Positions 16,847-33,063 of a stretch of 64,000 bases of DNA are shown here, piece by piece. The first letter of the stretch is position 1. Each line of letters begins with the position of its first letter. The DNA is from Clostridiaceae bacterium. Its GTDB lineage: Bacteria > Bacillota > Clostridia > Oscillospirales > QAMX01. Below the pieces are notes generated by a model. The model saw nothing but the letters and a program-made list of their open reading frames with translations. It had not been told where the DNA came from and did no database searches. The position numbers and the translations under genes were made by a program. The stretch spans positions 101,678-165,677 of the forward strand of contig JAHAYX010000001.1 in NCBI GenBank assembly GCA_018384365.1, given 5' to 3'.

Positions 16847-16865
16847 TCTGTAAGTAACGTTATTC

Positions 16866-16894: not shown

Positions 16895-16901
16895 CGAAAA
16901 T

Positions 16902-16918: not shown

Positions 16919-17030
16919 TCTTGCACGCATGTTCCAATTTTTTCTTGGAATATAGATTTTTTCGGAAATTATGTTCATGGAATGACAGTTCTGGGCGTAT
17001 TCCCATATACAGATATCATTTCATTCATAC

Positions 17031-17064
17031 GAGAAAAAGCCCCGTATGTTTTCACATACGGGGC
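17031..17064 (-). terminator. Terminator downstream of paralog 3
   Basis: 11-bp stem GCCCCGTATGT/ACATACGGGGC flanked by A- and T-runs. Confidence 0.75.
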
Positions 17065-17103
17065 TTTCTTAGTCGCACGAAGCGACGATTCGTTAAGAAT
17101 CAA

Positions 17104-18981
17104 TTATTTGATCTCAACAACCGGACGGCCCAAGGTCTCGAGGAAGCGGTTAACACGAGCCTGCATGACATTGATGTACTCCTGGAGGCCCAGGTTGTCA
17201 TATGCGGACTGTACCTGCTCGTCGATCGAGTCGATGGAGATGGAGCCGGTGATCAGGCCGGTGGTCAGCTCACGGAGGAAGGTCTTAAGGTCGGTATCGT
17301 ACATTGCGATGACCTCAGCCTCTTCGTTGGTGGCCATGGTGGTGTAGGAATAGTAAGCAGTCGGACGGTAGTTGTTCGGATTTTCCACGAGGTAATGCAG
17401 CATCACTTCGGAGCCGGCGATCATGGTGTCGGTCACAGGCTTGTTGGCAGCTGCCTGAAGCTCACGCCAGGATTCGATGGTCTGATTGTCCTGCGCATAA
17501 GGCTCGCCGGCATCCAGTGCATCCTGAGCATTGTCATAAACGTTCTTGATCGGAGCCCAGAGGTTGCCGTGGTGGGCGCCGTTGATCGGGAACAGGGAGT
17601 TGTTCAGCCAATAGGTACCGGCCGCGCCGGCGCTGTGGAGCTCGTCCTCGCTTGGCAGAACATACTGGATGAAGTTGCCGTTCTCATCATAGTCCCAAGC
17701 CTTGCCTTCAATACCATATTTGAAGGTCATGAAGGTATCCTGGCAGCAGAGGAAATCCATGAAGCTACCGGCTGCCTGGTAGTCGCACTTGGAGGAGAAG
17801 GAGAAGCCGGTGAAGAATGCCTTGGATTCCTGAATCAGCAGACGCGGCTCAACGCCTTCCACGCCCTGAACAATAGGCATCGGCATATAGTAGCCATTCG
17901 GATCGGTGCAGTTCCAGAACTGCAGGTTGCCCGGCATCATGCCGATAGCGGATACAACGTCAGCAGCGATCGTGGTGCCGTTGCCCCACGGATGCGTGCC
18001 TTCCACATAAACCAGATTGTTGTTGTAAATCTTGTTCATGTAGGTGCAGAACTCTGCATAACCGTCAGTCAGAGCGGAAACTTCGATTTCACCGGTGGAC
18101 GGATCTTCAATGAAGTCGGTGTACGGCAGGCCGAACCACTGGCCGATACCGGAGGTCTGGAAGTCACTGCCGAGGAGGCCGATGTAACGCTCATCAGCGG
18201 AGCCGTTGCCGTTCGCATCTTCATCCTGGAACTTCTTGATGACCTCAAAGAACTCATCCGTGGTGGTCGGCATTGCAAGGCCGAGCTTGTCGAGCCAGTC
18301 CTGACGGACGCAGACTGCGTATGCACCGTGGATCTGACCATCCGCACGGGTGTTGTACTTATCTGTGGAGAAGTCGAGGGAGGAACCGGTGGTGTTGGGC
18401 AGCGGTACATAATACCAATTGCCGTCATCAACCGTTGCGTATGCCTTCAGGTACAGAAGAGCATCCGGATCATTGTAGTAGCCCTTGGAGGAACCGTCGG
18501 AGTACTCCAGGACATCATCCAGGGAAGCCAGACTGCCGCCGGCGATCAGCTGCAGGATCTGCTGATCGGAGAGGATCTCACGGGTATTGAACATATCCGG
18601 GAGATTGCCGCCTGCGATCATACCGTTCAGGGTGTTCAGGTAAGCTTCCTGGTAGACGCAGTTGTAAACGTAGTCAACATTGTACGTATTGGTGACGAGA
18701 TCCATCAGGTGCTGGAAAGTTTCAAAGCCTTCGATTTCGTCGTTCGTGTAGTTTGCATTGTAACTACCGAGCCACTCAAGAGGAGCCTTTTCAACTTCAG
18801 CAGGGCCATCGTCGGTCGTGCCCTTGTCGTCAGAGCCCTTATCATTGGAGCCCTTGTCGTCAGAGGTCGAGGTGCTGCCCTTGTCATCCGCAGGCTTCTT
18901 ATCGCTCTGTGCGCACGCGCTGAACAGCGTGACCAGCATAAGAACCGCAATGAGCAGGCAAAGCAAACGTTTTGTGTTCAT
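17104..18981 (-). CDS. Large extracellular solute-binding lipoprotein, paralog 3 (diverged)
   Basis: Same lipobox (LFSAC) and overall architecture, roughly 70% identical to paralogs 1 and 2 by eye. Start set at MNTKRLL (AAGGAGG SD). Confidence 0.8.
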   Translation of the reverse strand: MNTKRLLCLLIAVLMLVTLFSACAQSDKKPADDKGSTSTSDDKGSNDKGSDDKGTTDDGPAEVEKAPLEWLGSYNANYTNDEIEGFETFQHLMDLVTNTYNVDYVYNCVYQEAYLNTLNGMIAGGNLPDMFNTREILSDQQILQLIAGGSLASLDDVLEYSDGSSKGYYNDPDALLYLKAYATVDDGNWYYVPLPNTTGSSLDFSTDKYNTRADGQIHGAYAVCVRQDWLDKLGLAMPTTTDEFFEVIKKFQDEDANGNGSADERYIGLLGSDFQTSGIGQWFGLPYTDFIEDPSTGEIEVSALTDGYAEFCTYMNKIYNNNLVYVEGTHPWGNGTTIAADVVSAIGMMPGNLQFWNCTDPNGYYMPMPIVQGVEGVEPRLLIQESKAFFTGFSFSSKCDYQAAGSFMDFLCCQDTFMTFKYGIEGKAWDYDENGNFIQYVLPSEDELHSAGAAGTYWLNNSLFPINGAHHGNLWAPIKNVYDNAQDALDAGEPYAQDNQTIESWRELQAAANKPVTDTMIAGSEVMLHYLVENPNNYRPTAYYSYTTMATNEEAEVIAMYDTDLKTFLRELTTGLITGSISIDSIDEQVQSAYDNLGLQEYINVMQARVNRFLETLGRPVVEIK

Positions 18982-19005
18982 GCTATTTCCTCCTTGTTTT
19001 TTGTT

Positions 19006-19037
19006 TTGTTCACAAGATATAAAAATATTGTGAACAA
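19006..19037 (-). promoter_or_regulatory. Inverted repeat in the 5' UTR of paralog 3
   Basis: TTGTTCACAA-N12-TTGTGAACAA. Confidence 0.55.
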
Positions 19038-19057
19038 TAATCGAATAACGTAAATTC

Positions 19058-19086
19058 ATTATACCGGCCTTTACATGAAATGTCAA
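19058..19086 (-). promoter_or_regulatory. Consensus sigma-A promoter of paralog 3
   Basis: On the minus strand, TTGACA, 17 nt, TATAAT. Both hexamers are perfect. Confidence 0.75.
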
Positions 19087-19093
19087 CACAAAC

Positions 19094-19110
19094 TTCAAAC
19101 TTTCATAACA
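19094..19110 (-). promoter_or_regulatory. Conserved 17-nt box 7 nt upstream of the -35 (paralog 3)
   Basis: Sense TGTTATGAAAGTTTGAA, identical to the box upstream of paralog 2. Confidence 0.55.
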
Positions 19111-20585: not shown

Positions 20586-21521
20586 ATGTTTAAAAGTGCA
20601 TACAAAGACCGATATCTTTTGTACGCCGACAATTACGTGGAAAGCGCACAGGAGGACACTTCATTATTGAACATCAACGAGGCTCACGAGCTTGTTTACT
20701 GCAAATCCGGACGGCTTTCCGCGAATGTGGAGGGTGTTTCCTATATCATCGGCCCCGGCGATATTCTGATCACGCGTGATGCGGAAGTGCACAAGGTTGA
20801 GCCGACCGAATTTCCGGCCGAATTTCACCACATGGAGTTCAGTCCGTTTTATTACACGATCTTTGATCCGGATTTCCGCATCTACCGTCCCTTTACGGAA
20901 CGGGAGCTTGGCATGGGCTGCGTCATCCCGAAAGGGAAAATTGACAGTACGTTTCTGGAGTCCTGCTTTGCAAATATTGCGGCCGTTCCCGACACCTATA
21001 TGCGCAGGATTGCGGTATTTGGTGCGCTGACCATGATATTGAGCGAGATCAACCGCGTTTATGAATACAACAATACAAGCACCTGCGATAACCGTTCCGA
21101 GATTCTGCGCAATATTATCACCTATGTCAACGACCATCTGGATGAGGACCTGAATCCGGACAGCATTGCGGCCAATCTGTACATTTCCCGCTCGCAGCTT
21201 GACCGGATTTTCAAGCAGCATCTGGGCTTCACCCTCTGGAAATACATCACGTTCAAGCGTTTGATCCGGGCCAGGCATCTGCTGCACGCCGGCATTGCAA
21301 ACAACGAAGTGGCGCGCCAGTGCGGTTTTGGGGACTATTCCACGTTTTACAAGGTCTATACCAAGATTTACGATACGCCGCCGCGCGCCGCGCAGCCAAA
21401 CGACACGACCGACCCGCTTTTAAAGCAGTTTTACAAGTTCGATGAAATGTGCAGCACCATTGAGTCGCCCAGCGAGCAAACCCGTGTGCTGGAAAGCGTG
21501 AAAAAGCTGAAGCTGGATTGA
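20586..21521 (+). CDS. AraC family transcriptional regulator (cupin sensor + HTH)
   Basis: N-terminal cupin-like domain. C-terminal double HTH (IAANLYISRSQLDRIFKQ... and VARQCGFGDYSTFYKVY). Confidence 0.9.
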   Translation: MFKSAYKDRYLLYADNYVESAQEDTSLLNINEAHELVYCKSGRLSANVEGVSYIIGPGDILITRDAEVHKVEPTEFPAEFHHMEFSPFYYTIFDPDFRIYRPFTERELGMGCVIPKGKIDSTFLESCFANIAAVPDTYMRRIAVFGALTMILSEINRVYEYNNTSTCDNRSEILRNIITYVNDHLDEDLNPDSIAANLYISRSQLDRIFKQHLGFTLWKYITFKRLIRARHLLHAGIANNEVARQCGFGDYSTFYKVYTKIYDTPPRAAQPNDTTDPLLKQFYKFDEMCSTIESPSEQTRVLESVKKLKLD

Positions 21522-21531
21522 GGACGGCAGC

Positions 21532-22530
21532 ATGAACTGTCACGTTTTGCAGGCCGTTTTGACGGCCTTTTCCCTCGGTACGCTCTACGGATCTCCTATG
21601 CCGCTCTCCGGCGGCCTGATGCATACCACATACCGCGTGGAAACAGACCGGGGCGTCTGGGTACTGAAGCGACTGAACCCCGAAGTGGCCGGGCGGCCCG
21701 GCGCACTCGGCAATATACGCCGTGCGGAGCAGGTGGCGCGTGCGCTGGCGCAGTTTGTTCCATCCGTTACCGCCCTTACGCGGGAGGATGACCCGATTTT
21801 CTGCCAGAACGGGCAGTACTTTCTGCTCTTTCCCTGGCAGGAGGGTGTTTCTGTCTTTCCGCCGGAGCTGACACCGGCGCACTGCGCCGCCATCGGCGCT
21901 ATACTCGGCCGGATACACAGCGCAAGGCTCACGCTCCCCGGTTTCCCGCTTCCCGAATATAGGGAAGGCCCTGACTGGAATGCGCTGGGGGAAGCCGCCC
22001 GTCGATTCCGGCAGCCCTGGGCGGACGCATTTCTCGCCGCGCTCCCGCAATGCGCGCGGCTATACGAGAAAGCGCGGCGTGCCTGCGTCAGAATGCGTGC
22101 AGGATGCGTTCTCAGCCACGGAGATCTCGACCCCAAGAATGTACTCTGGGCAAACGAAAAACCCGTCCTGATCGATTGGGAGGCCGCAGGGCCCATTCAC
22201 CCGGCGCTGGACGCCTTCACGCTGCTGCGTGACTGGACAGGCGATGGGCAGGGTGGGATTCTGCTGCCGCAGTTCCGGGCCATGCTTGACGCATACCGCG
22301 CGGCCTGTCCCGCAGCCGGGCTGCCGTGGGAGGAAGCGGCGCTGGCTGCCGCAGAGAGCATACTCGCCTGGCTTGCCTACAACGTGCGACGGGCGTGTGC
22401 CATAGACACGGCGGATCCCGCTGTACAAGCCGCAGGCGCAGAACAGGTCACGGAAACGCTTCGGACGCTGGCTTCCTATGAGTCGTGCGCGCAGCGGATG
22501 CTGTGTCTGCTGAATGCCCCCGGTTTCTGA
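21532..22530 (+). CDS. Phosphotransferase (APH/choline-kinase-like) family protein
   Basis: Brenner-type catalytic motif SHGDLDPKNVLW followed by LIDWE. 332 aa. Confidence 0.75.
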   Translation: MNCHVLQAVLTAFSLGTLYGSPMPLSGGLMHTTYRVETDRGVWVLKRLNPEVAGRPGALGNIRRAEQVARALAQFVPSVTALTREDDPIFCQNGQYFLLFPWQEGVSVFPPELTPAHCAAIGAILGRIHSARLTLPGFPLPEYREGPDWNALGEAARRFRQPWADAFLAALPQCARLYEKARRACVRMRAGCVLSHGDLDPKNVLWANEKPVLIDWEAAGPIHPALDAFTLLRDWTGDGQGGILLPQFRAMLDAYRAACPAAGLPWEEAALAAAESILAWLAYNVRRACAIDTADPAVQAAGAEQVTETLRTLASYESCAQRMLCLLNAPGF

Positions 22531-22646
22531 AAAACAACAAGTCCGGATACCGGCCTTTCAAGGCCCGTGTCCGGACGTCTTTTTGTGTCAGTCGCGCCGC
22601 TTCCCGCATAAAATGGGGCATCTTGAGAAAAAGGATGACGCGCCTT

Positions 22647-23165
22647 ATGAAACTCATTGAATTTCCCTATAACCGCGAACTGGCCGTGGCCTATGCGCAC
22701 CGCTGGGCCTATGGACGCAATCCCGAATTTTTTGATTTCCAGGGCATAGGAGGCGACTGCACCAATTTTGCCTCCCAGTGCATCTATGCCGGCGCCGGCG
22801 TGATGAATTATACCCCGATATATGGTTGGTACTACATCACCGCAAACGACCGCACCGCCTCCTGGACGGGCGTACAGTACTTATACAATTTCCTGACGGG
22901 CAACCTGAATGCCGGGCCCTTCGGAACGGACACGGACATTTCACAAATGCAGCCCGGCGACATTTGCCAGCTTGCGCTGAACCGGCCGGAGTTTCACCAC
23001 ACCCCGGTGATTGTCTCCGTCGGAGAAACCCCGACGCTCGACAACATTCTGGTCGCTGCCCACTCCCGGGACGCAGACTATCGCCCGCTCTCCAGCTATG
23101 CATTCCGGGCAATCCGCTTCATTCATATCGAAGCGGTGCGCACCTTTGTCCCCGACAGCGAATAA
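22647..23165 (+). CDS. Putative amidase-domain protein (papain-like Cys fold)
   Basis: GGDCTNFASQCIYAGAG motif with a later HH pair, typical of the Firmicute 'putative amidase domain'. The start is ambiguous between 22635 and 22647. Confidence 0.6.
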   Translation: MKLIEFPYNRELAVAYAHRWAYGRNPEFFDFQGIGGDCTNFASQCIYAGAGVMNYTPIYGWYYITANDRTASWTGVQYLYNFLTGNLNAGPFGTDTDISQMQPGDICQLALNRPEFHHTPVIVSVGETPTLDNILVAAHSRDADYRPLSSYAFRAIRFIHIEAVRTFVPDSE

Positions 23166-23184: not shown

Positions 23185-23217
23185 AAAAAAGGCAGGATGG
23201 TTTTCCTGCCTTTTTTC
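23185..23217. terminator. Bidirectional terminator between convergent genes
   Basis: Stem GGCAGGA/TCCTGCC flanked by an A-run and a T-run. Confidence 0.8.
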
Positions 23218-23221: not shown

Positions 23222-24226
23222 TTAATACCGTTCCCGGATTCTGTTTGCCACGCGTTTTCCCTGTACTTTGAGACGGCGCACGGCCTGTACGGCCACGATT
23301 CCCGCAAACACCAGCGGCACAACGGCGGAAACCGCCGCAAACACCAGCATCAGCGCCATCATATCTTCCGTATAGCGCGCGGCGTTCTCCCAATACGGGT
23401 ATAAAATGCCGAATACATTCATGGAGCGGCTTCCGAAATGCCAAATGATGCCCGTGATGCTGCCAAGGCTGTACCGGGCGCTGTTTTCCACAATCTCGCC
23501 GCCCGCTTTCATGCTCTGCGTTACCGTATTTTTGGCAAAACCGGAAATTGGATCCGCCAGAATGATTTCATAGCAATTGATCACTGCGTCCGACGGCGTG
23601 TTCTTCCGGTCGCTGTGCAGATAGATGCTCGGACCGCCGGCTCCGGCCGCAAGACTGGCCGCATCGCTTTCGGAATCCACGACGCCGGCCACGACATAGG
23701 GCACGTTGTCGATCGTCACCGTCATGCCGGCCACATCCACAGCGCCAAAGACCGCCCATGCCAGCTCCCGTGTGAGCACCACGCGGTCGCGCGCCAGATC
23801 GTCCCCGGCGATATAGCTGCCGGAAACCAGCTTCAGCGGATGAAAGGTGAAATACTGGCCGCCGATTTCATAGGCAGTCGCCTCGATGGAGCCTTTGTTT
23901 CCGTATACCGTCAGCTTCGACCGGGAGCTGTACGTATCCACATACATCCGAATGTCGCCCTCCACGTCCAGGGAAGCATCGACCAGCGCGGATTCCACGG
24001 CGGAACGGAATTGAGCAATGTCGTTCAGGCTCAGTTCCGCGCCGACCGGCCGGAAACAGGAGATCTGCGCAAAACGCACGCCGCTTTCCCCCTGCCAGCG
24101 TTTTGCGGCTGCCTGGGATTCCAGGAGGTTGGCATAGTGGCTGTATCCCGCCACCGACGCGATAAATGCGGCGATCAGCAGCGCATTCAAAGCCAATATG
24201 AGGATTGTGCTGCGTTTCCTGCGCAT
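23222..24226 (-). CDS. MacB-like periplasmic-core-domain protein with only two TM helices (no FtsX 4-TM bundle)
   Basis: N-terminal TM, an extracytoplasmic domain of ~270 aa (LKLVSGSYIAGDDLARDRVVLTRELAWAVFG...VTIDNVPYVVAGVVD) and a single C-terminal TM. Confidence 0.55.
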   Translation of the reverse strand: MRRKRSTILILALNALLIAAFIASVAGYSHYANLLESQAAAKRWQGESGVRFAQISCFRPVGAELSLNDIAQFRSAVESALVDASLDVEGDIRMYVDTYSSRSKLTVYGNKGSIEATAYEIGGQYFTFHPLKLVSGSYIAGDDLARDRVVLTRELAWAVFGAVDVAGMTVTIDNVPYVVAGVVDSESDAASLAAGAGGPSIYLHSDRKNTPSDAVINCYEIILADPISGFAKNTVTQSMKAGGEIVENSARYSLGSITGIIWHFGSRSMNVFGILYPYWENAARYTEDMMALMLVFAAVSAVVPLVFAGIVAVQAVRRLKVQGKRVANRIRERY

Positions 24227-24248
24227 ACTGTTTCCCTTTCCATCCAAA

Positions 24249-26144
24249 TCAGTTTTCCACAAGACGCACCAGCTGGCCGGGCGTCAGCGGCGCCGACGAG
24301 GTCGTAATCACATAGTCATAGCTGACCAAGCTGCCCGATACCGCCGTATTGGTATCATCGGAGGCAAGCACCTGTACGTCCACACGCGTCGCCACATAGC
24401 GGTTGCCCAGCGGGCTGTTCTTCGTCTGTACCGTCAGCACAAAATAGCCGTTTGCATCGGAGCGCACCGCGCTGTTGGGCACAATCAGCTCATAGTTCGC
24501 GCTCTTCTGGCTGATGGCCAGATTCAGCTGGTCACCGGCGGATACGTCGCCTTCCACCACAAAGTTCAAGAGCTTGCTCTGACCGGCGCCGGCGGGATCA
24601 TTGGTGATCGCTGCAAGCGTTGCCTTGATGTCAGAGCCCCAGTAATAACCGGTCACGTCCGCGCTGTCGCCAATCTTCACCTTCTGGGCCTGTTCATTCG
24701 TGACGGAGAAGCTGAGCATATAGCCGCGGTCGTTTTCCTCAATCGTCATCAGGGAGACGTCGTAATCCGTCGTGGAACCGGCGGAAATATTGATTGCCGT
24801 TACGGTGCCGGCAACGGGGGCATTGATGGTATCGCCGCCCTCGCCTTCTTCATATTTGTCGATTTTCTCCTGAAGCTCGTCGATCTGCTTTTTGGCCTTT
24901 TCCACATCCAGGTCAAACTTGGTTTTTTCCACCGTTGTGGAGTGCTGCGATTCCTGAACGGAGATCAGCTTATCTTCCAGAGCATCCTCGGCAGCCTTCA
25001 CGGCGTCGTCGAGCATTTTATAGTTCTCTTTTTTTGTTTTCAGCGTTTCCAGCAGGGCATTGGCTTCCTCGAGTGCCTTGTCGGCGTTCTTCTTTTCCTT
25101 CTCCGCCGCCTTCTTCTGCTCCTCCAGCGTTTCCAGCTGGGCCTTCAGGCTGGAAGCCTGTGCGGATTCCATGGACGATGCGCCCAGCTCCGCAAGGCGG
25201 TTGTAATAGGCTGTCTGTGCATCGTTATAGGCAATCTGTGCCGCTTCCAACGCCACTTTGGCGTCCGTTATTTTTTCATAAGCCTCGGAGTATGTTATAC
25301 CATCTAGCCCTGCACCCGGATTCATCCGCGCATAACCGGCCATACGGGCCTCCAGGCTGTACTCCGGATGATACTCAATTTCCCATGTTGCGGCAATCTC
25401 ACTCAGTTTTTCATAGGCGCGGCCGTAAATCAGGTTGGCTGTCTGCAATTCCGTTTTTTTGCTGTTCAGCTCCCGTGCGGCGGCATCCAGCGCTTTCTGC
25501 TCGGCGGAAAGGTCTGCATTCACCGTGCCGCCGCTCAGGCCGGCAAGCTGTTCGTTCAGCTCGGCAATTTTTTCGTCCAGATCCTCAATCTGGTTCGCCG
25601 CTGTCTCCGCGGCAATTTCCTTATCCGTCACATCGCTCTCCGCGGAGGCAATCTGCGCATCCGTTACATAGGACAGGTCGCGCTCTTCAATCGCTTCTTC
25701 CACCTTTTCCTTGAGCCGTTCGATTTCCCGGCTGTCGGAGGAGGTGTTGATATACGGCGAGCTTAAAAGCAGCAGACGGTAGTTATACTTTGCGTCGTCC
25801 AGCTGATCCCGCAGTTCCTGCAGACCTGTGCTCTCGCCCTCTTCCAGGATGAACAGCACATCGCCCACCTCCACCGTATCGCCCTTTCGCACGGCCACGG
25901 TTTTGATCACGCGGTTTTCCTTCACCTTCACCTCATAGGCGGAGTTTGCGGTCACAGTACCGGAGCCGCGTATCTTCGCCGAAATGGTTCCCGAGGACAC
26001 ATACTGCGTGGCGACCTCCGGCAGGGAACGGTTCATGATGGTATTCGAGAAGAAGGTCAAAACGAGCATGATGGCAAGGAATATAATGGCTGCATTTTTG
26101 ATCCAGCCTCTTCTTTTTCCTCTGAGTGCTTCTTTGGTATCCAT
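24249..26144 (-). CDS. HlyD/membrane-fusion-protein family adaptor with an unusually long coiled coil
   Basis: N-terminal TM and a lipoyl-like hairpin (VRKGDTVEVGDVLFILE ... INAPVAGTVTAINI) split by ~330 aa of heptad-rich sequence. C-terminal beta-barrel region. Confidence 0.75.
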   Translation of the reverse strand: MDTKEALRGKRRGWIKNAAIIFLAIMLVLTFFSNTIMNRSLPEVATQYVSSGTISAKIRGSGTVTANSAYEVKVKENRVIKTVAVRKGDTVEVGDVLFILEEGESTGLQELRDQLDDAKYNYRLLLLSSPYINTSSDSREIERLKEKVEEAIEERDLSYVTDAQIASAESDVTDKEIAAETAANQIEDLDEKIAELNEQLAGLSGGTVNADLSAEQKALDAAARELNSKKTELQTANLIYGRAYEKLSEIAATWEIEYHPEYSLEARMAGYARMNPGAGLDGITYSEAYEKITDAKVALEAAQIAYNDAQTAYYNRLAELGASSMESAQASSLKAQLETLEEQKKAAEKEKKNADKALEEANALLETLKTKKENYKMLDDAVKAAEDALEDKLISVQESQHSTTVEKTKFDLDVEKAKKQIDELQEKIDKYEEGEGGDTINAPVAGTVTAINISAGSTTDYDVSLMTIEENDRGYMLSFSVTNEQAQKVKIGDSADVTGYYWGSDIKATLAAITNDPAGAGQSKLLNFVVEGDVSAGDQLNLAISQKSANYELIVPNSAVRSDANGYFVLTVQTKNSPLGNRYVATRVDVQVLASDDTNTAVSGSLVSYDYVITTSSAPLTPGQLVRLVEN

Positions 26145-26154
26145 ATGATCCCCC

Positions 26155-27039
26155 TTACCCCTTTACGGAGCCAGAATATGTGATGCCCTCGACCAGGTAA
26201 TCCTCTCCGTGCAGGAACAGCAGGAGCGTCGGCACCATATAAATCGTCGCGACGGCAAAAGCCAGTCCGACTTCACCTGAATTGATTTGCGAAAGGAACA
26301 CGGAAAGCGGCTGTTTTTCCGCGTCGGACAGCAGAACGATCGGCTGTTCCACCATGTTCCAATAGTCGATGAACACGAGTATCACGATGGAGTAAAGCGC
26401 GCTGCGGCACATGGGCAGGCAGATGCGCGTAAAGATCTTCCAGTCTCCCGCGCCGTCCAGCTTGGCGGCCTCGATCAGCGAAACCGGGATGCGCCGCATA
26501 AATTTTGTGAGCAAAAACACCGAAAACGGTGCGAAAATGCCCGGCAGAATGATGGCCCAGCGGGTATTCAGCAAATGCGTCCACTCTGCCACCAGATAGT
26601 TCGGCACCAGCGTCACCTGATAGGGCATCAGCATGAGGATGATGTAAAAGAAAAACAGGGCTTCCTTCATTTTTCCCCGGTAGCAGGTGAAGCTGTATGC
26701 GGCAAATGCCGCCACCGCCACCTGGAAAATCACGATCGGCACCACCAGAATCACACTGTTCCAGAATTTCAGCAGATAATCCGGGCTTTTCAGCAGCGCT
26801 GTGGCATACTGGGAAAAGCTGACTTGATCCGGGATGAATTTCAGGTTCACCTGATCCGAAATATAGGTCGTGGTATTGGAAAGGGACGAAAACACCACGC
26901 CATAGTTCGCGGCGATTTCCGTGCCGGACATGAAGGAATTCGTGATGGTCAGCACGGTCGGCATCAAAAACACTATAGCAAACAGCAGCGCCGTCAGAAA
27001 AAGCAGCCCGCGCCCCAGCGCATACATGGCCTTTCTCAT
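26155..27039 (-). CDS. Carbohydrate ABC transporter permease (MalG/CUT1 type)
   Basis: Six TM segments and the EAA loop IEAAKLDGAGDWKIFTRICLP. Confidence 0.9.
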   Translation of the reverse strand: MRKAMYALGRGLLFLTALLFAIVFLMPTVLTITNSFMSGTEIAANYGVVFSSLSNTTTYISDQVNLKFIPDQVSFSQYATALLKSPDYLLKFWNSVILVVPIVIFQVAVAAFAAYSFTCYRGKMKEALFFFYIILMLMPYQVTLVPNYLVAEWTHLLNTRWAIILPGIFAPFSVFLLTKFMRRIPVSLIEAAKLDGAGDWKIFTRICLPMCRSALYSIVILVFIDYWNMVEQPIVLLSDAEKQPLSVFLSQINSGEVGLAFAVATIYMVPTLLLFLHGEDYLVEGITYSGSVKG

Positions 27040-27923
27040 CCTTCCACATCCTTTCCGAAGAAGTTCTCCGCCACGAAAAGGATGGCGATCAGCACCACCA
27101 TAACGGCCGCCATCAGCACGGCCGCCGCCGATAGCTTTTGATAGTCAATATTCACGAACGCATTGTTCATGAAGTGCTGCAGCATATAAAGAGATTCGTA
27201 GGGATAGGCGCCTGTCAGCAGATAGACCTCGCGGAACACCTTGAAGGAGTTGATCAGCGACAGAATCGTGACAAACAGCACCGTCGGCGAGAGATAGCGC
27301 AGCTTGATATTGAAAAAGCAGTATACCGGGCCGGCGCCCTCCACGCGGGCAACCTCCAAAAGGCCTTTTGGCATATTGTTCAGTGCCGCCATAAACAGAA
27401 TCATGTTATAGCCGAGGTTTTTCCACAGAAACAGGACAATGATCGGTATCTGGCCGTAATCGGATTTGAACCAGTCGATTTTGTCATACCCGAATATCGA
27501 CAGGAAATTGTTCAGCACGCCGTTATAATGGAAAATGACCTGCCAGATCAGGACAATGGAGGCAACCGGCACCATCATGGGGCTCAGGAAGAAGGTCCTG
27601 AGCTGGCTTTTGGCCGGGATTTTGCACTCCAGCATGAGCGCCAGCAGAATTGCCAGTATGACCGCGAGCGGTACAGCGACCGCCGAAAACTTCAGCGTGT
27701 TGGCGGCCGCCATACGGAAGGACGAGTTGTTTAAAACATTGACAAAATTCTCAAAGCCGACAAATTCCCTGACCAGCGGGCTTTTGATGAGCGAATAATA
27801 GACCACCACGCCGAAGGGCAATATGTAAAATATGGCCGCGCCGAGAAAGCTGGGCGCCAGAAACGCCGCGCCGCTCAGTCTGCCGCGCATCTTGCGGCGG
27901 AGTTTTGCGTGATTGATCTTCAT
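27036..27923 (-). CDS. Carbohydrate ABC transporter permease (MalF/CUT1 type)
   Basis: Six TM segments and the EAA loop LEVARVEGAGPVYCFFNIKL. 4-nt overlap with the next permease gene. Confidence 0.9.
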   Translation of the reverse strand: MKINHAKLRRKMRGRLSGAAFLAPSFLGAAIFYILPFGVVVYYSLIKSPLVREFVGFENFVNVLNNSSFRMAAANTLKFSAVAVPLAVILAILLALMLECKIPAKSQLRTFFLSPMMVPVASIVLIWQVIFHYNGVLNNFLSIFGYDKIDWFKSDYGQIPIIVLFLWKNLGYNMILFMAALNNMPKGLLEVARVEGAGPVYCFFNIKLRYLSPTVLFVTILSLINSFKVFREVYLLTGAYPYESLYMLQHFMNNAFVNIDYQKLSAAAVLMAAVMVVLIAILFVAENFFGKDVEG

Positions 27924-27941
27924 GCTTTATCCTGCCTTAAT

Positions 27942-30410
27942 TTATCTCTGTTCGTTGACGTAAATACTTGCGCGGCTCTGGATGATGGCCGCGACATCCT
28001 GTGCGGTCTTCTGGCCTTCAAAGAAAGCCTGTGCCTCTTCGGCGATGATGTCGTAAATATCCTGATCAAACGCGCTTGCACCGCTGGCGTTGTTGATCAG
28101 TTCCACAATCTGATCCACATCCTCCTGCGTGGCGGCATACATTTCCACTTCTATGCCGTCATCAATCCACCAGGAGCCGTGGGAGACTTCCACTTCGTTG
28201 CCGTTTTCATCGGTGCCCATCTGCTTTTCCATGGCCTGCGCAACCATCTGGTCAAATGCCTTCTGGTTGGTCGGGAAACGCCAGCCATAATGGTCTTCCG
28301 TCTGGTATTCCTCCGTGAAGAGGTAACGGACGAAGGACCAGGCCGCATCCTTGTTGGCGCAGGTAGAAGAAATGGCAAGGCCGTCGGAGAACTGGGCAAT
28401 GCTGCCGCTGCCGGAGGAGGTCGGGAAGCCTACGAACGTGATGTCGCCGCCGAATACCTGTTTGTACACCCGGAATTCGTCAAAGTCGGCAACCGTCGTG
28501 TTGGCCAGCATGACTTTGCCTTCCATGATCTGCTTATACAGGCTGACATATTCGTAATTGTCGTCGTAGTTGATCTCGGCCGGGAAGGTTTTTACAAACT
28601 CCAGAAGCTGTATAAACTCCTCGTTATTGAAATCGCACTTGCCCGTTTCCCAATCTACATAATTGCTTTGGTTCATCGAGCAGATATAAAAGAGCAGATT
28701 GTCGCGCGTTGTATCGCAGAAGGCCATGGCGCCCTCCGGCATTTTGGCAAGAGCCGCCTTCAGATCGCTGACTGTCCAGCCCATTTTATCGCCGACGATT
28801 TTCTCTGCGCCGATCACTGTTTCAATATAGAAGCTGGAGGCTGCCTGGTAAATACCGCCGTTGACTTCCAGCGCACGCAGCGCGCCGGGCACAATGGCAT
28901 CCGTGCCCAGTTCGGGATCCGACTCGATATACGGCTTCAGATCCTCAAGCAGGCCGCGGGCAATATAGCGGTTGATGGGCAGACCGGAGGTTGCAAGGAT
29001 ATCCGGCACCTTACCCGAAATGATCTCCGTCGTCAGCTTGGTCTGTCCGGCGGTGTAGTCGTCCTCCGTGTTGAATGTGGAATAATCCACCACGTTAATG
29101 CGGTAGCGGTCGCTTGCCTTGTTGAACTCAATGATCTTTGCGCGCACGTCATAGTTCAGCCACATACAGGCAAAGGTCAAGATTTCCTTCTCCGGAATGG
29201 TGGAGGGATCCGCCTTGGTCAGCGTGACAACCTCGACATTGGTGCGATCGTTCTTCCAGCTGGTGCTGATGCCGATAATACGGCCGTCATCCAGCGGGAT
29301 AATGCTTTGCAGCTCGTCTGAATTGATGTCGCTGTTGATCCAGTTGACCAGCTGTGTGGCCGTTTCGGTTTCTATCTGATAACCATAGAGCGAATAGCCG
29401 TCGTTATAGTAATAATCGTAGTCCCCGCCGCCGTTGATCAGGTAATAAATATTACCGGGAACCGGGAGATCGTCACCGAAGGCCTTCGCAGCCGTATCAA
29501 TTCTGCTCAGGACATAGCTCCCCGCGCCTTCGCTGTAATACATGGCGGCAACCGTGCCGTCTTTCAGTCTGACAAGCTGGTTAATCGATCCGTTTTCCAG
29601 GGGAACGGTGCACAGCATTGCGCCCGTTTCATCTACCACATAGACGCCGTTTTCCTCGCCGCCCGTGATATACAGCATCCCGCTGGCGTCCACCAGGAAA
29701 TTGTTGACATAGAAATACTGCTGTTCTCCGTAGATCTGGGAAAGGTCCACCGTGACCAGGGTTGCGCCCGTTTCATCCAGTTTGCGGATCAAATACTGGT
29801 TTCCGTCGTCAAAGTAGGTTCCGTTTTCGTCATAGTGCCAGGCATACATCTCTTCATAGACCCAGATGTTCCCGCTGCCGTCCACACACAAGCTGTTGAT
29901 GTAGCTGCTGCCCTGGGAACCCTCCGGAATCGAGGTCTGTTCGAAATTCTCCAGTCGTTTGAAGTCCGAGCCATCCGGATTGGCACTGCAAAGTGCCGGT
30001 TCGGTCTGGTCGTACTCGTACTTTTCGACATACTCGCCGTTTGCGATCTTTTCCTCGTCCGTGATAAGGTTCCAGTCCTCGTCATAATACTCCGTCACCT
30101 TGCCGGTTACCATCCACGCAATCATGTAGAGCCTTCCGTTTGCGTAGGTCAGCTGATCCAGGTTCTGGATTTCCTCGTCCGTCGTCAGCTTCTGATAAGC
30201 CGCCGTGTAAACAAAGTCCTTATACGAATCATCGGACGCGGCGTTTCCCTTATTGTCTTTGTTGCCGCTGTTGTCCTTGTTCCCGGACTCCGACGCATTT
30301 GTGCCGTTTTCGGCAGAATTGTTTTCCGTTTTGCTGCAGGCAGCCAGCGGCAAAACAAGCAGCAGCACCGCAAGCAGCAGTGCAGTCATTCTGAGTAATT
30401 TTCTCTTCAT
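27942..30410 (-). CDS. Lipoprotein: N-terminal beta-propeller-like domain fused to a family-1 extracellular solute-binding domain
   Basis: Lipobox LAAC. About 390 aa with recurring blade-like strands (DGSGNIWVY, ASGMLYITG, DGTVAAMYY, DDGRIIGIS), then a typical binding-protein body. Start at MKRKLL after a duplicated AAGGAGACTAC. Confidence 0.75.
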   Translation of the reverse strand: MKRKLLRMTALLLAVLLLVLPLAACSKTENNSAENGTNASESGNKDNSGNKDNKGNAASDDSYKDFVYTAAYQKLTTDEEIQNLDQLTYANGRLYMIAWMVTGKVTEYYDEDWNLITDEEKIANGEYVEKYEYDQTEPALCSANPDGSDFKRLENFEQTSIPEGSQGSSYINSLCVDGSGNIWVYEEMYAWHYDENGTYFDDGNQYLIRKLDETGATLVTVDLSQIYGEQQYFYVNNFLVDASGMLYITGGEENGVYVVDETGAMLCTVPLENGSINQLVRLKDGTVAAMYYSEGAGSYVLSRIDTAAKAFGDDLPVPGNIYYLINGGGDYDYYYNDGYSLYGYQIETETATQLVNWINSDINSDELQSIIPLDDGRIIGISTSWKNDRTNVEVVTLTKADPSTIPEKEILTFACMWLNYDVRAKIIEFNKASDRYRINVVDYSTFNTEDDYTAGQTKLTTEIISGKVPDILATSGLPINRYIARGLLEDLKPYIESDPELGTDAIVPGALRALEVNGGIYQAASSFYIETVIGAEKIVGDKMGWTVSDLKAALAKMPEGAMAFCDTTRDNLLFYICSMNQSNYVDWETGKCDFNNEEFIQLLEFVKTFPAEINYDDNYEYVSLYKQIMEGKVMLANTTVADFDEFRVYKQVFGGDITFVGFPTSSGSGSIAQFSDGLAISSTCANKDAAWSFVRYLFTEEYQTEDHYGWRFPTNQKAFDQMVAQAMEKQMGTDENGNEVEVSHGSWWIDDGIEVEMYAATQEDVDQIVELINNASGASAFDQDIYDIIAEEAQAFFEGQKTAQDVAAIIQSRASIYVNEQR

Positions 30411-30735
30411 AGTAGTCTCCTTGTAGTCTCCTTGCTGAAATTTTTCAAACTGGGCCGAACGGCCTTTTGTCAATCACAATATTAGACGCAAGCCATACCA
30501 AAAAGTTTCAGGCATCCAAAAAAGAAATCAGTTTGCAGATGGGCCTCTTTCATTATATCACAGGCAAGCCGAAAAGCCATATTGCCCCCGGTTATTTTTT
30601 TCTTAAATTTTTCTAACAGAGCACCTGCTCTTCCGCAATATCCTTGATTTACGCAGGTTTCCGTTATTTTCATGAATTTCTTTCAAAAAAGCAGACAAAT
30701 ACTAATGGCAAACAGGGAAAAAGGAGTTGTTTTTG

Positions 30736-33063
30736 ATGAAAGCTGTCATACTGGCCGGCGGCGAAGGTGCCAGGCTGCGGCCGCTGAGCTGCGGCACGCC
30801 AAAACCCATGACAAGGCTGTTTGACCGACCCATCATGGAACACACGCTCAACCTTCTGCGTAAAAACGGCATTACGGACATTGCCGTGACGCTTTGCTAT
30901 ATGCCGCATGTCTTTGAGGAATACTTCGGCGACGGAAGCCGCTGGGGCGTCAGCCTTCGTTATTATTATGAAACGACCCCTCTGGGTACGGCCGGCGGCA
31001 CGGCGGCCTGCCGCGATTTTCTGGACGGTGATTTTTTGGTCATCTCCGGTGACGCAGTCTGCGATTTCGATTTCGCGCCGCTTTTTGCATTTCACCGGCA
31101 GAGCCACGCCGAGGTGACGGTGGTGCTTTCCCGCCAAAGCAACCCGCTGGGCTATGGCCTGGTGCTGACCGGACAGGGCGGCAGGGTTTCACGCTTTATC
31201 GAAAAGCCCTCGTGGGACAGTGTTTTTACGGATACGGCCAATACCGGCATCTATATTCTCTCCCCCGCCGTTCTGCAGCAGGTGCCGCCGGGCAAAAAAG
31301 TCGATTTTGCGCACGACCTGTTTCCCCGCCTGCTGGCGGAGGGACGTGCCGTCTGTGCCGTGGCTGCTGACGGCTACTGGTGCGACGTCGGCAATTCCGG
31401 CGCCTATCTCACCTGCGTCCGGGACGCCCTGGCGGGGCGGGTCCGGCTGGAACTGCCTCCCGCGGAACGCGGGATCCGCGCGCTTTCCCCCATTCCCGCC
31501 GATGCGGTTGTCTCTCCGCCGGTTTATATCGGTGAAAACGTCACAATCGGGGAAGGCGCGCACATCGGGCCCTATACCGTGCTGGGGGAAGGCACGCGGG
31601 TCGGACGGGACGCCCGCGTGACCGGAAGCGCTGCAAACGGCGCCGTAATCGGCGCGAATGCACGCCTGCGCGACAGCATTGTCTGCCGCGGTGCGGAGAT
31701 CGGCGTGGGCGCCGTTTTGCAGGATGGCTGCGTCGTGGGCGAAAAAGCCGTCATCGGCGCGGGCGCACGCCTGCATGCCGGCGTTCTGGTCTGGCCGGAA
31801 AAGGCCTGTGCCGCGGATGCGGACGTCCGCTTCAACATCACATCCCGCTCCCCGTGCGAGCCGCCGGCATTTTGGGACGGTTCCGCCGTCTCCGGCGAGC
31901 CGGACGGGATGCTCACGCCGGAGTTCTGCACCTCGCTCGGCATTGCCGCGGCAATGACCTGTGGTCAGGCAGCCCGGATCGGCATCGGCTGTGAAAATGT
32001 CCCCGCTTGCGGGATGCTGGCCTCCGCGCTGGAATGTGGCATCCGTGCAGGGGGCGCGCGCGCCGTCCGCTGCGGCGGCAGCTTTGCGGCGGCAGCCGCC
32101 TTCGCGTCGCGGTATGCGTCGTTCGCGCTGTGTTTCTTCGTGTATTGCAGCGGGGAACAGATCACCGTGCGCCTGTTTGACGCGGACGGTCTGCCCCCGG
32201 AGCGGGAACACATCCGAAAGATCGAGCTGACCCTGCGCCAGGGGGATTTTTCCCGCGCGCCGTTTGGAAAAACAGGCCGCGTGATGAAGCTGAGCGGCCT
32301 GATGGACGTCTACTGCCGCAGCGCCACCTCCCACGGAGATGCACGCGGCAGAAGTTATGCCGTGCGTGCCTCCGCCGCTTCGCCCGCGTTATGCAACACA
32401 CTGTGGCTGATGGGTGCGCGCATTGCGCCGCGCGGCGAGGGCCGCGCCGTGTTTGAGCCCTCCGATGACGGGCTTTCCCTGCGGATCACGGATGAGACCG
32501 GACATCTGCTCGACGACGGGCAGACCATGGCCTGCGCGGCCTATGCGGCGCTGGAGTCCGGCGGCGAGCTGGCCGTTCCGTTTGAGGCGCCGGCAGTTTT
32601 TGATACGATGGCCGAAGGCTTCGGCAAACGGGTTTACCGCGTTGGGCGCGACGGCATACCTGCCCGACAGCTCTGGGCGGCGCAGACCTTCCTGCGTGAC
32701 GGCGTCCACCGCGCCGCGTACCTCGCAGCTTACACTGCCGCGCGCGGCATGACCATCGCCGGACTTGCTGAAAAGGTGCCGCATTTCCACACCGAAGCCC
32801 GCGAAATCCCCCTTGCCTCTGACCGGGCACGCTTCATGCGCGTCCTCTCGGACAGCTTTGACCGCAGCTGCCCCGAATACGGGCACGGTATGCGCGTACA
32901 CATCGACGGCGGCTGGATCACGATTGCGCCGTCCGCGCGCAGCTGCGCCATCCGGATCTGTGCGGAAAGCAGCGCGGCCGAGCTGGCGCACGAACTGTGC
33001 GAGGGCGTGTGCGAACGTGTGCGGCAGCTTGACAGCGATATAAAACGCCGAAAAACCGTCTGA
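30736..33063 (+). CDS. Sugar-phosphate nucleotidyltransferase fused to LbH and phosphohexomutase-like domains
   Basis: N-terminus MKAVILAGGEGARLRPLSCGTPKPM (NTP-transferase G-loop), hexapeptide-repeat region and a C-terminal alpha-D-phosphohexomutase-like region. Confidence 0.75.
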   Translation: MKAVILAGGEGARLRPLSCGTPKPMTRLFDRPIMEHTLNLLRKNGITDIAVTLCYMPHVFEEYFGDGSRWGVSLRYYYETTPLGTAGGTAACRDFLDGDFLVISGDAVCDFDFAPLFAFHRQSHAEVTVVLSRQSNPLGYGLVLTGQGGRVSRFIEKPSWDSVFTDTANTGIYILSPAVLQQVPPGKKVDFAHDLFPRLLAEGRAVCAVAADGYWCDVGNSGAYLTCVRDALAGRVRLELPPAERGIRALSPIPADAVVSPPVYIGENVTIGEGAHIGPYTVLGEGTRVGRDARVTGSAANGAVIGANARLRDSIVCRGAEIGVGAVLQDGCVVGEKAVIGAGARLHAGVLVWPEKACAADADVRFNITSRSPCEPPAFWDGSAVSGEPDGMLTPEFCTSLGIAAAMTCGQAARIGIGCENVPACGMLASALECGIRAGGARAVRCGGSFAAAAAFASRYASFALCFFVYCSGEQITVRLFDADGLPPEREHIRKIELTLRQGDFSRAPFGKTGRVMKLSGLMDVYCRSATSHGDARGRSYAVRASAASPALCNTLWLMGARIAPRGEGRAVFEPSDDGLSLRITDETGHLLDDGQTMACAAYAALESGGELAVPFEAPAVFDTMAEGFGKRVYRVGRDGIPARQLWAAQTFLRDGVHRAAYLAAYTAARGMTIAGLAEKVPHFHTEAREIPLASDRARFMRVLSDSFDRSCPEYGHGMRVHIDGGWITIAPSARSCAIRICAESSAAELAHELCEGVCERVRQLDSDIKRRKTV

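Follow-up and report, generated by a model that had tools for sequence, protein, structure and literature searches.

MacAB-TolC, YknWXYZ of Bacillus and Spr0693-0694-0695 of S. pneumoniae share a membrane-fusion protein (MFP) that is anchored by a transmembrane (TM) helix and built from lipoyl, alpha-hairpin, beta-barrel and membrane-proximal domains. In these MacAB-like pumps the MFP gene lies beside a gene for a protein carrying the MacB-type periplasmic core domain (PCD) on long stalk helices, and according to a study of Gram-positive MacAB-like pumps the monoderm MFP is reportedly thought to form a wall-penetrating tube. CUT1 importers (MalEFGK2, UgpABCE and the MsmK/MsmX-energised Firmicute systems) have two BPD_transp_1 permeases with EAA loops, a solute-binding lipoprotein (SBP) of the oligosaccharide class and a MalK-type ATPase with OB_MalK and TOBE_2 domains. 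It is established that CUT1 systems in Firmicutes can share an MsmK/MsmX-type ATPase encoded at an unlinked site, and Firmicute CUT1 operons commonly have no linked ATPase gene. An extracytoplasmic PCD/ECD-type domain together with a long coiled-coil partner reaching into the wall is also found in FtsEX (with EnvC, PcsB or CwlO) and LolCDE, two further type VII ABC systems of the mechanotransmission kind, which have a full four-helix FtsX-type domain, an FtsE/LolD ATPase and coiled-coil partners with hydrolase domains. In the Mce/MlaD/LetB systems an ABC importer is prolonged outside the cytoplasm by an oligomeric protein that forms a tunnel or bridge.

Here we analyze a five-gene cassette in which an MFP and a MacB-type PCD protein are encoded together with a CUT1 importer. 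No CUT1 system with an MFP or a MacB PCD protein was found in the literature searched, and we know of none; to our knowledge, envelope proteins of the MFP plus MacB-PCD kind are otherwise known only from drug-efflux pumps. The cassette would share the tunnel concept with the Mce/MlaD/LetB systems, but these have unrelated folds (MCE versus MFP/PCD), MlaE/YrbE permeases, lipid substrates and diderm or mycolate hosts.

The five-gene operon and its products

In the window, i.e. the whole 64-kb stretch of DNA that was analysed, five minus-strand open reading frames were confirmed where the first-pass annotation had placed them, in the order SBP, permease 1, permease 2, MFP and PCD protein (Table 1). 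The junctions are one 4-nt overlap between the two permease genes and gaps of 18, 10 and 22 nt, in agreement with the overlap of 4 nt and gaps of 10-22 nt read earlier. The SBP gene starts with an ATG at 30410 and has an AAGGAG ribosome-binding site, and the PCD gene starts with an ATG at 24226 and has the ribosome-binding site GGAAAGGGA. The candidate promoter box lies approximately 140 nt 5' of the SBP start codon without a good -35 element, and since the consensus promoter scan requires both hexamers it did not report this box. The terminator hairpin begins 6 nt past the PCD stop codon, is the only convincing one and is common to the operon end and a convergent Amidase_6 gene. Scanning of the window sequence gave no terminator-like sites in the intergenic junctions, and a promoter or terminator separating the permease genes from the MFP and PCD genes was looked for without any being found. 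The tight junctions, the single terminator, the ribosome-binding sites and a two-way association that is without exception across hundreds of genomes (see below) support the earlier proposal that the five genes are one co-transcribed unit, with the MFP and PCD genes coupled to the importer.

Table 1 Features of the MFP/PCD-bearing CUT1 cassette in the window.
Feature	Position	Strand	Evidence
Candidate operon promoter, extended -10-like box TGaTATAAT	30552..30560	-	Read directly from sequence; weak evidence
SBP lipoprotein, 822 aa	27942..30410	-	Pfam SBP_bac_1, AlphaFold2 model, Foldseek, PDB sequence match
CUT1 permease 1, MalF/UgpA-like, 295 aa	27036..27923	-	Pfam BPD_transp_1; NCBIfam
CUT1 permease 2, MalG/UgpE-like, 294 aa	26155..27039	-	Pfam BPD_transp_1; NCBIfam
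MFP, 631 aa	24249..26144	-	Pfam Biotin_lipoyl_2, HlyD_3; NCBIfam; PDB profile search
PCD-only protein, 334 aa	23222..24226	-	Pfam MacB_PCD, AlphaFold2 model, Foldseek, PDB profile search, alignment
Bidirectional intrinsic terminator hairpin	23185..23216	.	13-bp stem, A and T runs on either side

The lipobox (LAAC), the Pfam domain SBP_bac_1 and a PDB sequence match to CbpC (7x0o, E 3e-15) identify the first product as an extracytoplasmic SBP lipoprotein of the sugar/oligosaccharide class. SBP_bac_1 is confined to residues 451-703, and in the AlphaFold2 model (pLDDT 85) residues 19-62 form a disordered tether of approximately 40 aa, residues ~67-400 a domain of their own that is all-beta and propeller-like, and residues ~409-822 an SBP fold of the oligosaccharide type. 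The best Foldseek matches were CbpC 7x0o, MalE, Lmo0181 and a sophoro-oligosaccharide binding protein, and all 50 top matches listed were ABC-transporter SBPs, mostly oligosaccharide-binding. The propeller-like N-terminal half, which matches PQQ/NHL/Reg_prop propeller repeats in profile searches, is an addition to the first-pass description of this protein.

Both permeases carry BPD_transp_1 and an intact EAA coupling loop (EVARVEGAG in permease 1, IEAAKLDGAG in permease 2), as expected from the earlier assignment of two CUT1, i.e. type I importer, permeases. Their best NCBIfam matches were UgpA, GlcT and MalF for permease 1 and GlcU, UgpE and MalG for permease 2, all below the equivalog cutoffs. 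Compared with known CUT1 importers, the cassette has the extra propeller-like domain in its SBP and unusually conserved permeases, with 62-78% identity across the family against 35-49% for the SBP.

Like the MacAB-type MFPs, the MFP is anchored by an N-terminal TM helix (~15-37) and has a lipoyl domain that the coiled-coil hairpin interrupts, together with a beta-barrel and, at the C-terminus, a membrane-proximal domain of the YknX type. Pfam places Biotin_lipoyl_2 at 79-101 and HlyD_3 at 439-531, so that the lipoyl halves are ~340 aa apart, close to the ~330 aa of coiled coil previously noted. NCBIfam matches to RND_mfp and type_I_hlyD were both below cutoff, profile searches of the PDB matched MacA, HlyD and LipC, and the precomputed Pfam domains of MFP homologues include BSH_YknX and YknX_C. 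The insert measures 290-398 aa in all 28 aligned members and nearly equals the whole MacA chain of 371 aa. A hairpin of this size would be roughly 13-25 nm long, and conserved Gly-rich breaks within it could give a shorter folded bundle. When conservation was calculated per region as the mean frequency of the commonest residue in each alignment column, the TM segment was the best-conserved region (0.88), and the hairpin tip the least conserved (~0.3), with large indels. In contrast to the MacAB-like pumps the tip is hypervariable and has no conserved motif for binding an outer-membrane factor, and an outer-membrane factor gene was seen in none of the loci.

In the PCD protein the MacB-type core domain lies between TM1 and TM2, and the chain ends 20-30 residues past TM2 in a short basic tail. 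MacB_PCD (77-204) is its sole Pfam domain, and the AlphaFold2 model (pLDDT 88) has only two long helices, 2-32 and 278-333, one on either side of the PCD. The top Foldseek matches were the MacB periplasmic domain (3ftj), MacB (5nik_J), Spr0695 (5xu1) and YknZ (5f9q), and the 50 matches listed are to extracytoplasmic domains of MacB, YknZ, LolC/E, HrtB, YbbP and BceB with probabilities of 0.97-1.0. The protein thus has the PCD/ECD fold (Porter plus Sabre-like) on two stalk helices, as in FtsEX and LolCDE. Neither an FtsX domain nor a nucleotide-binding domain was present in Pfam or in the model, which agrees with the first-pass view of a MacB-type core between just two TM helices. The model has no four-helix membrane domain (TM1-PCD-TM2-TM3-TM4), and the protein has no ATPase of its own coupled through a cytoplasmic coupling helix. 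In this it differs from the MacAB-like pumps, since TM3 and TM4 of FtsX, the coupling helix and the MacB/LolD-type nucleotide-binding domain are all missing and the translocator is instead a type I importer with SBP and, in relatives, a MalK-type ATPase. It differs from FtsEX and LolCDE in having no hydrolase domain and, in relatives with a linked ATPase gene, a motor of the importer type.

An invariant juxtamembrane motif, YPYWENAARxTED, occupies residues 277-288 of the PCD protein, whose TM helices and tail on the cytoplasmic side show low conservation. The PCD-only family comprises at least 669 clusters at 50% identity (E<=1e-30). Its members are nearly all 320-460 aa long with PF12704 only, the best 150 are almost all of one short length class, and FtsX (PF02687) occurred in 0 of the 120 members listed with precomputed Pfam domains. 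The PCD-only protein is therefore a large, conserved, full-length family under selection and not a truncated copy.

Conservation of the cassette and its ATPase

The PCD-only family is present in 280 species genomes, and the cassette was also found on hundreds of metagenome contigs. It is widespread in Oscillospiraceae of human or animal gut and fermenter origin, and the hosts, labelled Oscillospiraceae/Clostridia, are considered monoderm. Counts anchored on the PCD gene were taken from GTDB species genomes and those anchored on permease 2 from metagenome loci. Starting from the PCD gene, the MFP gene lay directly upstream in 67/67 cases and both permease genes upstream in 55/55; in the reverse test from permease 2, the MFP gene followed in 63/63 and the PCD gene in 48/48. 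Co-occurrence of the five genes, which the first-pass annotation had suggested as a check, is thus conserved, and distant MFP homologues used as starting point led to the same cassette. An SBP of the cassette family was present upstream on the same strand in 45 of 50 loci, and a profile search of the remaining five found it elsewhere in one locus (L051) and as a partial match in another (L062), giving 47/50; within 10 kb, none was found in the other three. The genes keep the order SBP, permease, permease, MFP, PCD without variation, the MFP/PCD pair was never seen without the permeases, and the two-way association of 100% holds over proteins diverged to ~40% identity. An MFP/PCD pair adjoining a MacB ATPase/permease elsewhere was looked for and never seen.

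It is clear from the gene junctions that translational coupling is found throughout the cassette family, with median gaps of -4 nt between the permease genes (a -4 junction in 66/68 loci), +1 nt between the MFP and PCD genes and +3 nt between the PCD gene and the ATPase gene that follows it in some relatives. The latter encodes a MalK/MsmK-type ATPase with ABC_tran, OB_MalK and TOBE_2 domains and visible Walker A, signature and Walker B motifs, and lies directly 3' of the PCD gene in 14/57 genome loci, or about a quarter of the species, as well as in the loci L001, L002/3 and L087. The ATPase-bearing relatives show 40-47% identity. An importer ATPase gene in this position, with a median gap of 3 nt, means that the efflux-type genes are embedded inside an importer operon. 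A MacB/LolD/YknY-type nucleotide-binding domain was found neither in the window operon nor in any cassette, the only cassette ATPase being MalK-type.

A MalK-type ABC ATPase is not encoded within the window, and one followed the cassette in 0/36 close metagenome relatives. The first-pass statement that the operon has no ATPase therefore holds for the window and its lineage, but not for the family. We take the absence as a state of the lineage; the simplest explanation is that the genome encodes a MalK-type ATPase at another site.

Favoured reading and its alternatives

The reading we favour, with middling confidence, is a CUT1 (type I; TC 3.A.1.1) binding-protein-dependent ABC importer to which the MFP and the PCD protein add an obligate accessory module that probably projects into the wall. 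One clostridial lineage would have added two obligate extra subunits, the MFP and the PCD protein, to an importer whose ligand is probably oligosaccharide-like, and in the window's lineage an unlinked MalK-type gene would supply the ATPase. By analogy with MacA6-MacB2 and Spr0693-0695 the MFP may oligomerise on a dimer of the PCD protein, since the latter retains exactly the TM1-PCD-TM2 core on which the MFP sits and which makes up the dimer axis in MacB. The highly conserved TM helix of the MFP would bind the equally conserved permease pair, and the coiled-coil hairpin would cross the cell wall and present its hypervariable tip at the cell surface. In this arrangement the module could act as a wall-spanning importer extension, guiding the ligand or the long-tethered, propeller-bearing SBP between surface and permease, and presumably not as an efflux duct. 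The wall-spanning scaffold or glycan-capture complex proposed by the first-pass annotation can thus plausibly be inferred. A more specific version, where the type I translocator is physically built into a wall-spanning MFP/PCD stalk or tube and surface-captured ligand is channelled to the membrane, is possible but doubtful. Several points count against the favoured reading: the poorly conserved TM helices and tail of the PCD protein make the coupling to a motor uncertain, a conduit is not obviously needed because peptidoglycan is generally considered porous to oligosaccharides, and the length given for the hairpin is a sequence-based estimate. The lack of catabolic neighbours and the three of 50 loci without a cassette-family SBP within 10 kb were likewise counted against it.

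MFPs and MacB PCDs are textbook export markers, and in NCBI annotation the cassette MFPs carry the label HlyD family efflux transporter periplasmic adaptor subunit, the PCD proteins that of an ABC transporter permease. Their occurrence here as obligate, co-inherited parts of an importer operon contradicts this annotation. If true, the version with the built-in stalk or tube would give the first MFP-dependent ABC importer. Monoderms would then have their own form of "selfish" glycan uptake, and the accepted view of MFPs as parts of exporters alone would be reversed. The cassette raises the questions of how ligands pass from surface to membrane in thick-walled bacteria and whether a PCD/MFP pair can function without a motor of its own. 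The cassette probably matters for the ecology of Oscillospiraceae, which are abundant yet poorly cultured.

The gene neighbourhoods bear on a different reading. Scanning of ~50 loci showed no glycoside hydrolase or sugar-catabolic genes accompanying the cassette that would hint at its ligand; the commonest neighbour was an OmpR-type two-component system (18 loci), and in L042 LytR_cpsA_psr follows the cassette. FtsX/ABC_tran pairs near the cassettes in L085 and L086 form separate BceAB-like units, convergently oriented and with a two-component system to themselves. Neighbours that are envelope- or stress-flavoured and not catabolic would suit a mechanotransmission machine, in which the MalK-type ATPase and the type I permeases are mainly a motor. 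Their conformational cycle would be relayed by the TM helix of the MFP and by the PCD protein to work done outside the membrane, such as gating or the extraction or release of a glycan or lipid-linked molecule held at the wall or surface, in the manner of MacB, LolCDE and FtsEX, and net import would be secondary or absent. In its favour, the PCD fold is characteristic of type VII mechanotransmission ABC systems, conservation is unusually high in the permeases and in the TM helix of the MFP, and a few cassettes are without a nearby SBP. However, the PCD protein has none of the elements that relay movement of the nucleotide-binding domain in MacB (TM3, TM4 and the coupling helix), its tail is not conserved, a sugar-type SBP is kept in nearly all loci, and the ATPase has the C-terminal regulatory domains of MalK, as is typical for sugar importers. 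We consider this reading unlikely.

The SBP itself would fit a more limited role, in which the MFP and PCD protein form only a static platform that holds or concentrates the propeller-bearing SBP, and possibly orphan SBPs, by the permeases, with neither conduit nor wall-spanning. Besides the extra domain and long disordered tether of the SBP, several cassettes have tandem SBP paralogues, one open reading frame joins a PCD protein in frame to an SBP, and the window encodes three orphan AlgQ-type SBP lipoproteins 4-10 kb from the cassette, whose permeases are the sole CUT1 permeases in the window. A docking platform would, however, leave the long coiled-coil insert and its hypervariable tip unexplained, and the MFP/PCD pair is invariant even in cassettes without a nearby SBP, making this role quite improbable.

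It could also be argued that the MFP and PCD protein are a separate envelope complex, e.g. wall- or stress-related, that shares a transcript with the importer but has no part in its function. The poor conservation of the PCD TM helices means that this protein gives no strong signal of an intramembrane partnership, and no catabolic genes tie the cassette to sugar use. Such independence is nevertheless very unlikely given the placement of the two genes between the permease and importer ATPase genes, with 4-nt overlaps or 1-3 nt gaps in many species, and given the complete two-way association, in which the pair never occurs without permeases. The remaining alternative from the first-pass annotation, an unrelated, degenerate remnant of a MacAB/YknXYZ-type exporter that has lost its ATPase and FtsX helices, has only the domain resemblance in its favour and was rejected, as it is refuted by the conservation of the PCD-only family with its many divergent clusters, common length class, invariant motifs and confident fold, by the missing FtsX domain in the members listed and by the MacB-type ATPase being encoded in no cassette. 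As a TM1-PCD-TM2 protein, the PCD protein is a natural "minimal" MacB fragment for structural work.

The operon and its conservation across genomes

The cassette comprises genes for a solute-binding lipoprotein (SBP), two permeases (P1 and P2), a membrane-fusion protein (MFP) and a protein in which a MacB-type periplasmic core domain lies between two TM helices (PCD protein). The first-pass annotation of these five genes proved accurate. Neighbouring genes are separated by gaps of 18, 10 and 22 nt or, at one junction, overlap by 4 nt, and none of the weak terminator-like matches from a terminator scan falls into these junctions. Scanning the whole window against Rfam at gathering thresholds and for tRNAs returned nothing, and hence no riboswitch or leader ahead of the operon. 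Both permeases retain their EAA loops (EVARVEGAG and EAAKLDGAG), and the SBP_bac_1 match in the SBP is confined to residues 451-703.

Table. Features of the operon and its surroundings in the window.
Feature	Position	Strand	Remarks
SBP ORF	first gene of 30410-23222	minus	822 aa, starts MKRKLLRMTALLLAVLLLVLPLAAC; lipobox; AAGGAG ribosome-binding site
P1 and P2 ORFs		minus	two proteins, ~295 aa each; BPD_transp_1 in each (Pfam)
MFP ORF		minus	631 aa; Biotin_lipoyl_2 79-101 and HlyD_3 439-531 (Pfam)
PCD ORF	ATG at 24226	minus	334 aa; GGAAAGGGA ribosome-binding site; MacB_PCD 77-204 the sole Pfam domain
Terminator hairpin	23185-23216		13 bp, flanked by A and T runs; 6 nt past last stop codon
Extended -10 box TGaTATAAT	30560-30552		upstream of first gene; weak candidate, uncalled by consensus scan
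Nucleotidyltransferase	30727-33063	plus	778 aa, hexapeptide-repeat and phosphomutase-like domains; divergent to operon
Amidase_6 gene	22485-23165	plus	convergent
APH-family kinase gene	21532-22530	plus	convergent
AraC-type regulator gene	20586-21521	plus	convergent
Three AlgQ-like lipoproteins	12697-19098	minus	tandem paralogues, ~620-660 aa
Sporulation genes	3534-5521 and 38830-39759		SpoIIP, Gpr germination protease, Germane-domain protein
Two-component system	39769-41884

The order SBP, permease, permease, MFP, PCD was identical in three looked-up homologues at 44-72% identity. When each GTDB species was represented by one genome, 280 genomes contained a PCD relative, nearly all of them labelled Oscillospiraceae, Clostridia or Clostridiales. 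We fetched 80 PCD loci and searched them by tblastn with the window's proteins, counting only where the locus sequence sufficed. The MFP gene was directly upstream of the PCD gene in 67 of 67 loci, both permease genes were upstream in 55 of 55, and the SBP gene in 45 of 50. When the five exceptions were searched with a profile, an SBP was located on the other strand in one locus (L051) and a partial SBP in another (L062); three of the 50 showed no SBP within 10 kb of the cassette. Distant MFP homologues (about 40% identity) taken as the start led to the same cassette in three further loci (L085, L086 and L087). When the search was started from P2, with 80 loci fetched from metagenome contigs at 70-79% P2 identity, the MFP gene followed P2 in 63 of 63, and the PCD gene followed in 46 of 48 within the automatically applied interval, while inspection showed it in the other two as well. 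Co-occurrence of the five-gene arrangement, which the first-pass annotation had suggested checking, is therefore conserved whether the PCD, MFP or P2 gene is the start.

The spacing is tight throughout the family, with median gaps of -4 nt (P1 to P2), +30 nt (P2 to MFP), +1 nt (MFP to PCD) and +3 nt (PCD to ATPase), and the MFP-PCD junction is a 4-nt overlap in nineteen cases. In loci where the MFP, the PCD protein and the SBP are 24-49% identical, the permeases reach 62-78%. Collectively, these data show an importer cassette that is conserved and includes two accessory subunits of efflux type.

The ATPase of the cassette

An ABC ATPase gene directly follows the PCD gene in L001, L002/L003 and L087, and in 14 of the 57 species loci with sufficient downstream sequence. 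Its product carries ABC_tran, OB_MalK and TOBE_2 domains, with canonical Walker A, signature and Walker B motifs visible in the L001 and L002 sequences, and is of the MalK/MsmK/UgpC type, which energises CUT1 importers, and not of the MacB/LolD type. Since a MalK-type gene comes after the PCD gene, the MFP and PCD genes are internal to the importer operon, with the permease genes before them and the ATPase gene behind.

A tblastn search with the L001 and L002 cassette ATPases found no MalK-type ATPase in the window, and the cassette ATPase is also absent from the closest relative, L004, and from all 36 close metagenome relatives (0/36), so its absence is a clade-level state. The earlier observation that the system has no ATPase thus stands for the window and its close relatives, but not for the family, given the species loci that do carry a MalK-type gene. 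Firmicutes CUT1 operons have an established reliance on an unlinked, shared MsmK/MsmX-type ATPase, and such an unlinked enzyme would presumably power the window's importer.

The two efflux-type subunits and their possible role

The best-conserved part of the MFP is its N-terminal TM segment, where the commonest residue of a column has a mean frequency of 0.88 over residues 21-40 and many positions between R12 and V44 do not vary. Conservation falls to about 0.3 in the central part of the coiled coil (about 240-340), where large insertions and deletions occur. The two lipoyl halves are separated by 290-398 aa in 28 of 28 aligned members; compared with MacA, this insert alone nearly equals the entire 371-aa chain. 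Its coiled-coil character is backed by spurious matches to SMC, Rad50, EzrA and tropomyosin, and in the alignment Gly-rich breaks are conserved in both arms at equal distances from the midpoint. An antiparallel, segmented hairpin would fit this pattern, and at 0.15 nm per helical residue its predicted length is 13-25 nm. The TM helix is predicted to contact the permease pair. One locus, L117, has two tandem MFP genes ahead of the PCD gene (4091-6175).

The AlphaFold2 model of the PCD protein (pLDDT 88, built on a 26-sequence alignment) has a single N-terminal TM helix, a mixed alpha/beta domain and a single long C-terminal helix (278-333). Its Foldseek matches are the MacB periplasmic domain (3ftj), full-length MacB (5nik_J, 5lil, 5gko), Spr0695 (5xu1) and YknZ (5f9q), with LolC/E, HrtB, YbbP and BceB next; MacB and YknZ were also recovered with the PCD sequence profile. 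A word-indexed search gave 309 homologues, and among the 120 listed the length is 323-444 aa and PF12704 is the only Pfam domain recorded on any. With clustering at 50% identity, an exhaustive profile search gave 669 clusters at E<=1e-30, rising to 1710 at E<=1e-3; nearly all of the best 150 clusters have lengths of 320-460 aa. In the alignment 35 positions are invariant, and a juxtamembrane motif directly before TM2, YPYWENAARxTED, is among them; the TM helices themselves are poorly conserved (0.43-0.48 on the measure used for the MFP). PCD-only proteins form a genuine family and are not truncated copies. A homologous 1089-aa ORF, P0341, runs in frame from a PCD-only protein into a propeller-plus-SBP lipoprotein. 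We considered it as a Rosetta-stone PCD-SBP fusion and rejected this, because the SBP part retains its own Met start and lipobox: rather than a clean fusion of domains, P0341 is either a read-through or a variant gene order in which PCD precedes SBP.

Public annotations call the MFP an efflux adaptor and the PCD protein an ABC permease, and a full-text literature search found no description of a cassette of this kind. Set against a MacAB-type pump, the parts come from known families, but their combination falls outside that class; set against CUT1 importers, the cassette adds two subunits unknown in CUT1. There is an appreciable but less than even chance that it stands for a new class of import machines that span the wall. 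In the mechanism that we favour, an MFP oligomer would sit on a PCD dimer, be linked to the permeases via the MFP TM helix and project across the wall with its variable tip exposed at the surface, and the module would serve ligand or SBP traffic. That its output is instead mechanotransmission is improbable, and that MFP and PCD form purely a scaffold for the SBP is somewhat less probable again. An independent passenger module is unlikely in view of the gene order and the two-way 100% linkage. The exporter remnant offered as an alternative in the first-pass annotation is excluded by the conservation.

Binding proteins and gene neighbourhood

The AlphaFold2 model of the SBP (pLDDT 85) consists of a signal/lipobox helix, a disordered stretch (19-62), about 26 beta strands within residues 67-400 and an SBP fold from about residue 409. 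The 50 top-ranking Foldseek matches listed belong to SBPs of ABC transporters, in most cases oligosaccharide-binding ones, and include CbpC, MalE, Lmo0181/cycloalternan and the sophoro-oligosaccharide, maltotriose and arabino-oligosaccharide binding proteins. CbpC is the best sequence match too, at 19% identity, which is too low for naming the ligand. The profile of the N-terminal domain matches PQQ-type, NHL and designed propeller proteins, and Pfam Reg_prop repeats occur there in 11 of 30 members. Several cassettes carry tandem pairs of SBP paralogues (L001 1190-6131; also L020, L037, L072 and L078). In L004, a relative at 72% identity, gene calling splits the SBP into two overlapping genes (3808-6262; a 386-aa propeller part and a 449-aa SBP part), which suggests a frameshift or assembly error in that MAG.

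The window's three AlgQ-like lipoproteins, 94% and 65% identical, sit in a lower-GC stretch (0.51-0.54) and match AlgQ1/AlgQ2-type oligosaccharide-binding proteins in the PDB, with no Pfam match. No permease adjoins them, and because P1 and P2 are the window's only CUT1 permease pair, the lipoproteins may serve this pair as additional orphan binding proteins.

Among 95 upstream neighbour proteins the only recurrent families were Response_reg plus Trans_reg_C and HisKA plus HAMP (18 loci each), the others being housekeeping genes, and 122 downstream neighbours had no strong recurrence. A glycan-utilisation locus was rejected, as these proteins include no glycoside hydrolases and none of a catabolic kind that recurs. 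A dedicated OmpR-type response regulator and HAMP/HisKA kinase, co-directional or divergent, adjoin the cassette upstream in 18 of about 50 scanned loci (L025, L032, L033, L039, L045, L046, L051, L054, L062, L066, L070, L075, L076, L082 and others). The kinases are mutually orthologous (34-86% identity). A BceS-like intramembrane sensor was rejected on account of the extracytoplasmic loop of about 115 aa, and the window's own two-component system was rejected as an orthologue, its kinase being 20-25% identical.

The nucleotidyltransferase, Amidase_6 and AraC neighbours are retained in L004, and Amidase_6, APH and AraC in L088, whose 3-kb flank stops short of the nucleotidyltransferase side; beside more distant cassettes the window's flanking genes are not retained. 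LytR_cpsA_psr (wall-polymer ligase) genes adjoin the cassette in L042 (11143-12630), which has no SBP within 10 kb, and in L002 (18287-21125). The sporulation genes in the window indicate an endospore-forming Firmicute. In one subclade the cassette is followed, one gene downstream, by a convergent unit resembling BceAB, with an 840-aa FtsX permease, a 224-aa ATPase, a kinase and a regulator (L085 13453-18357, L086 13471-18413). This unit constitutes a system of its own and does not provide the parts that the cassette lacks.
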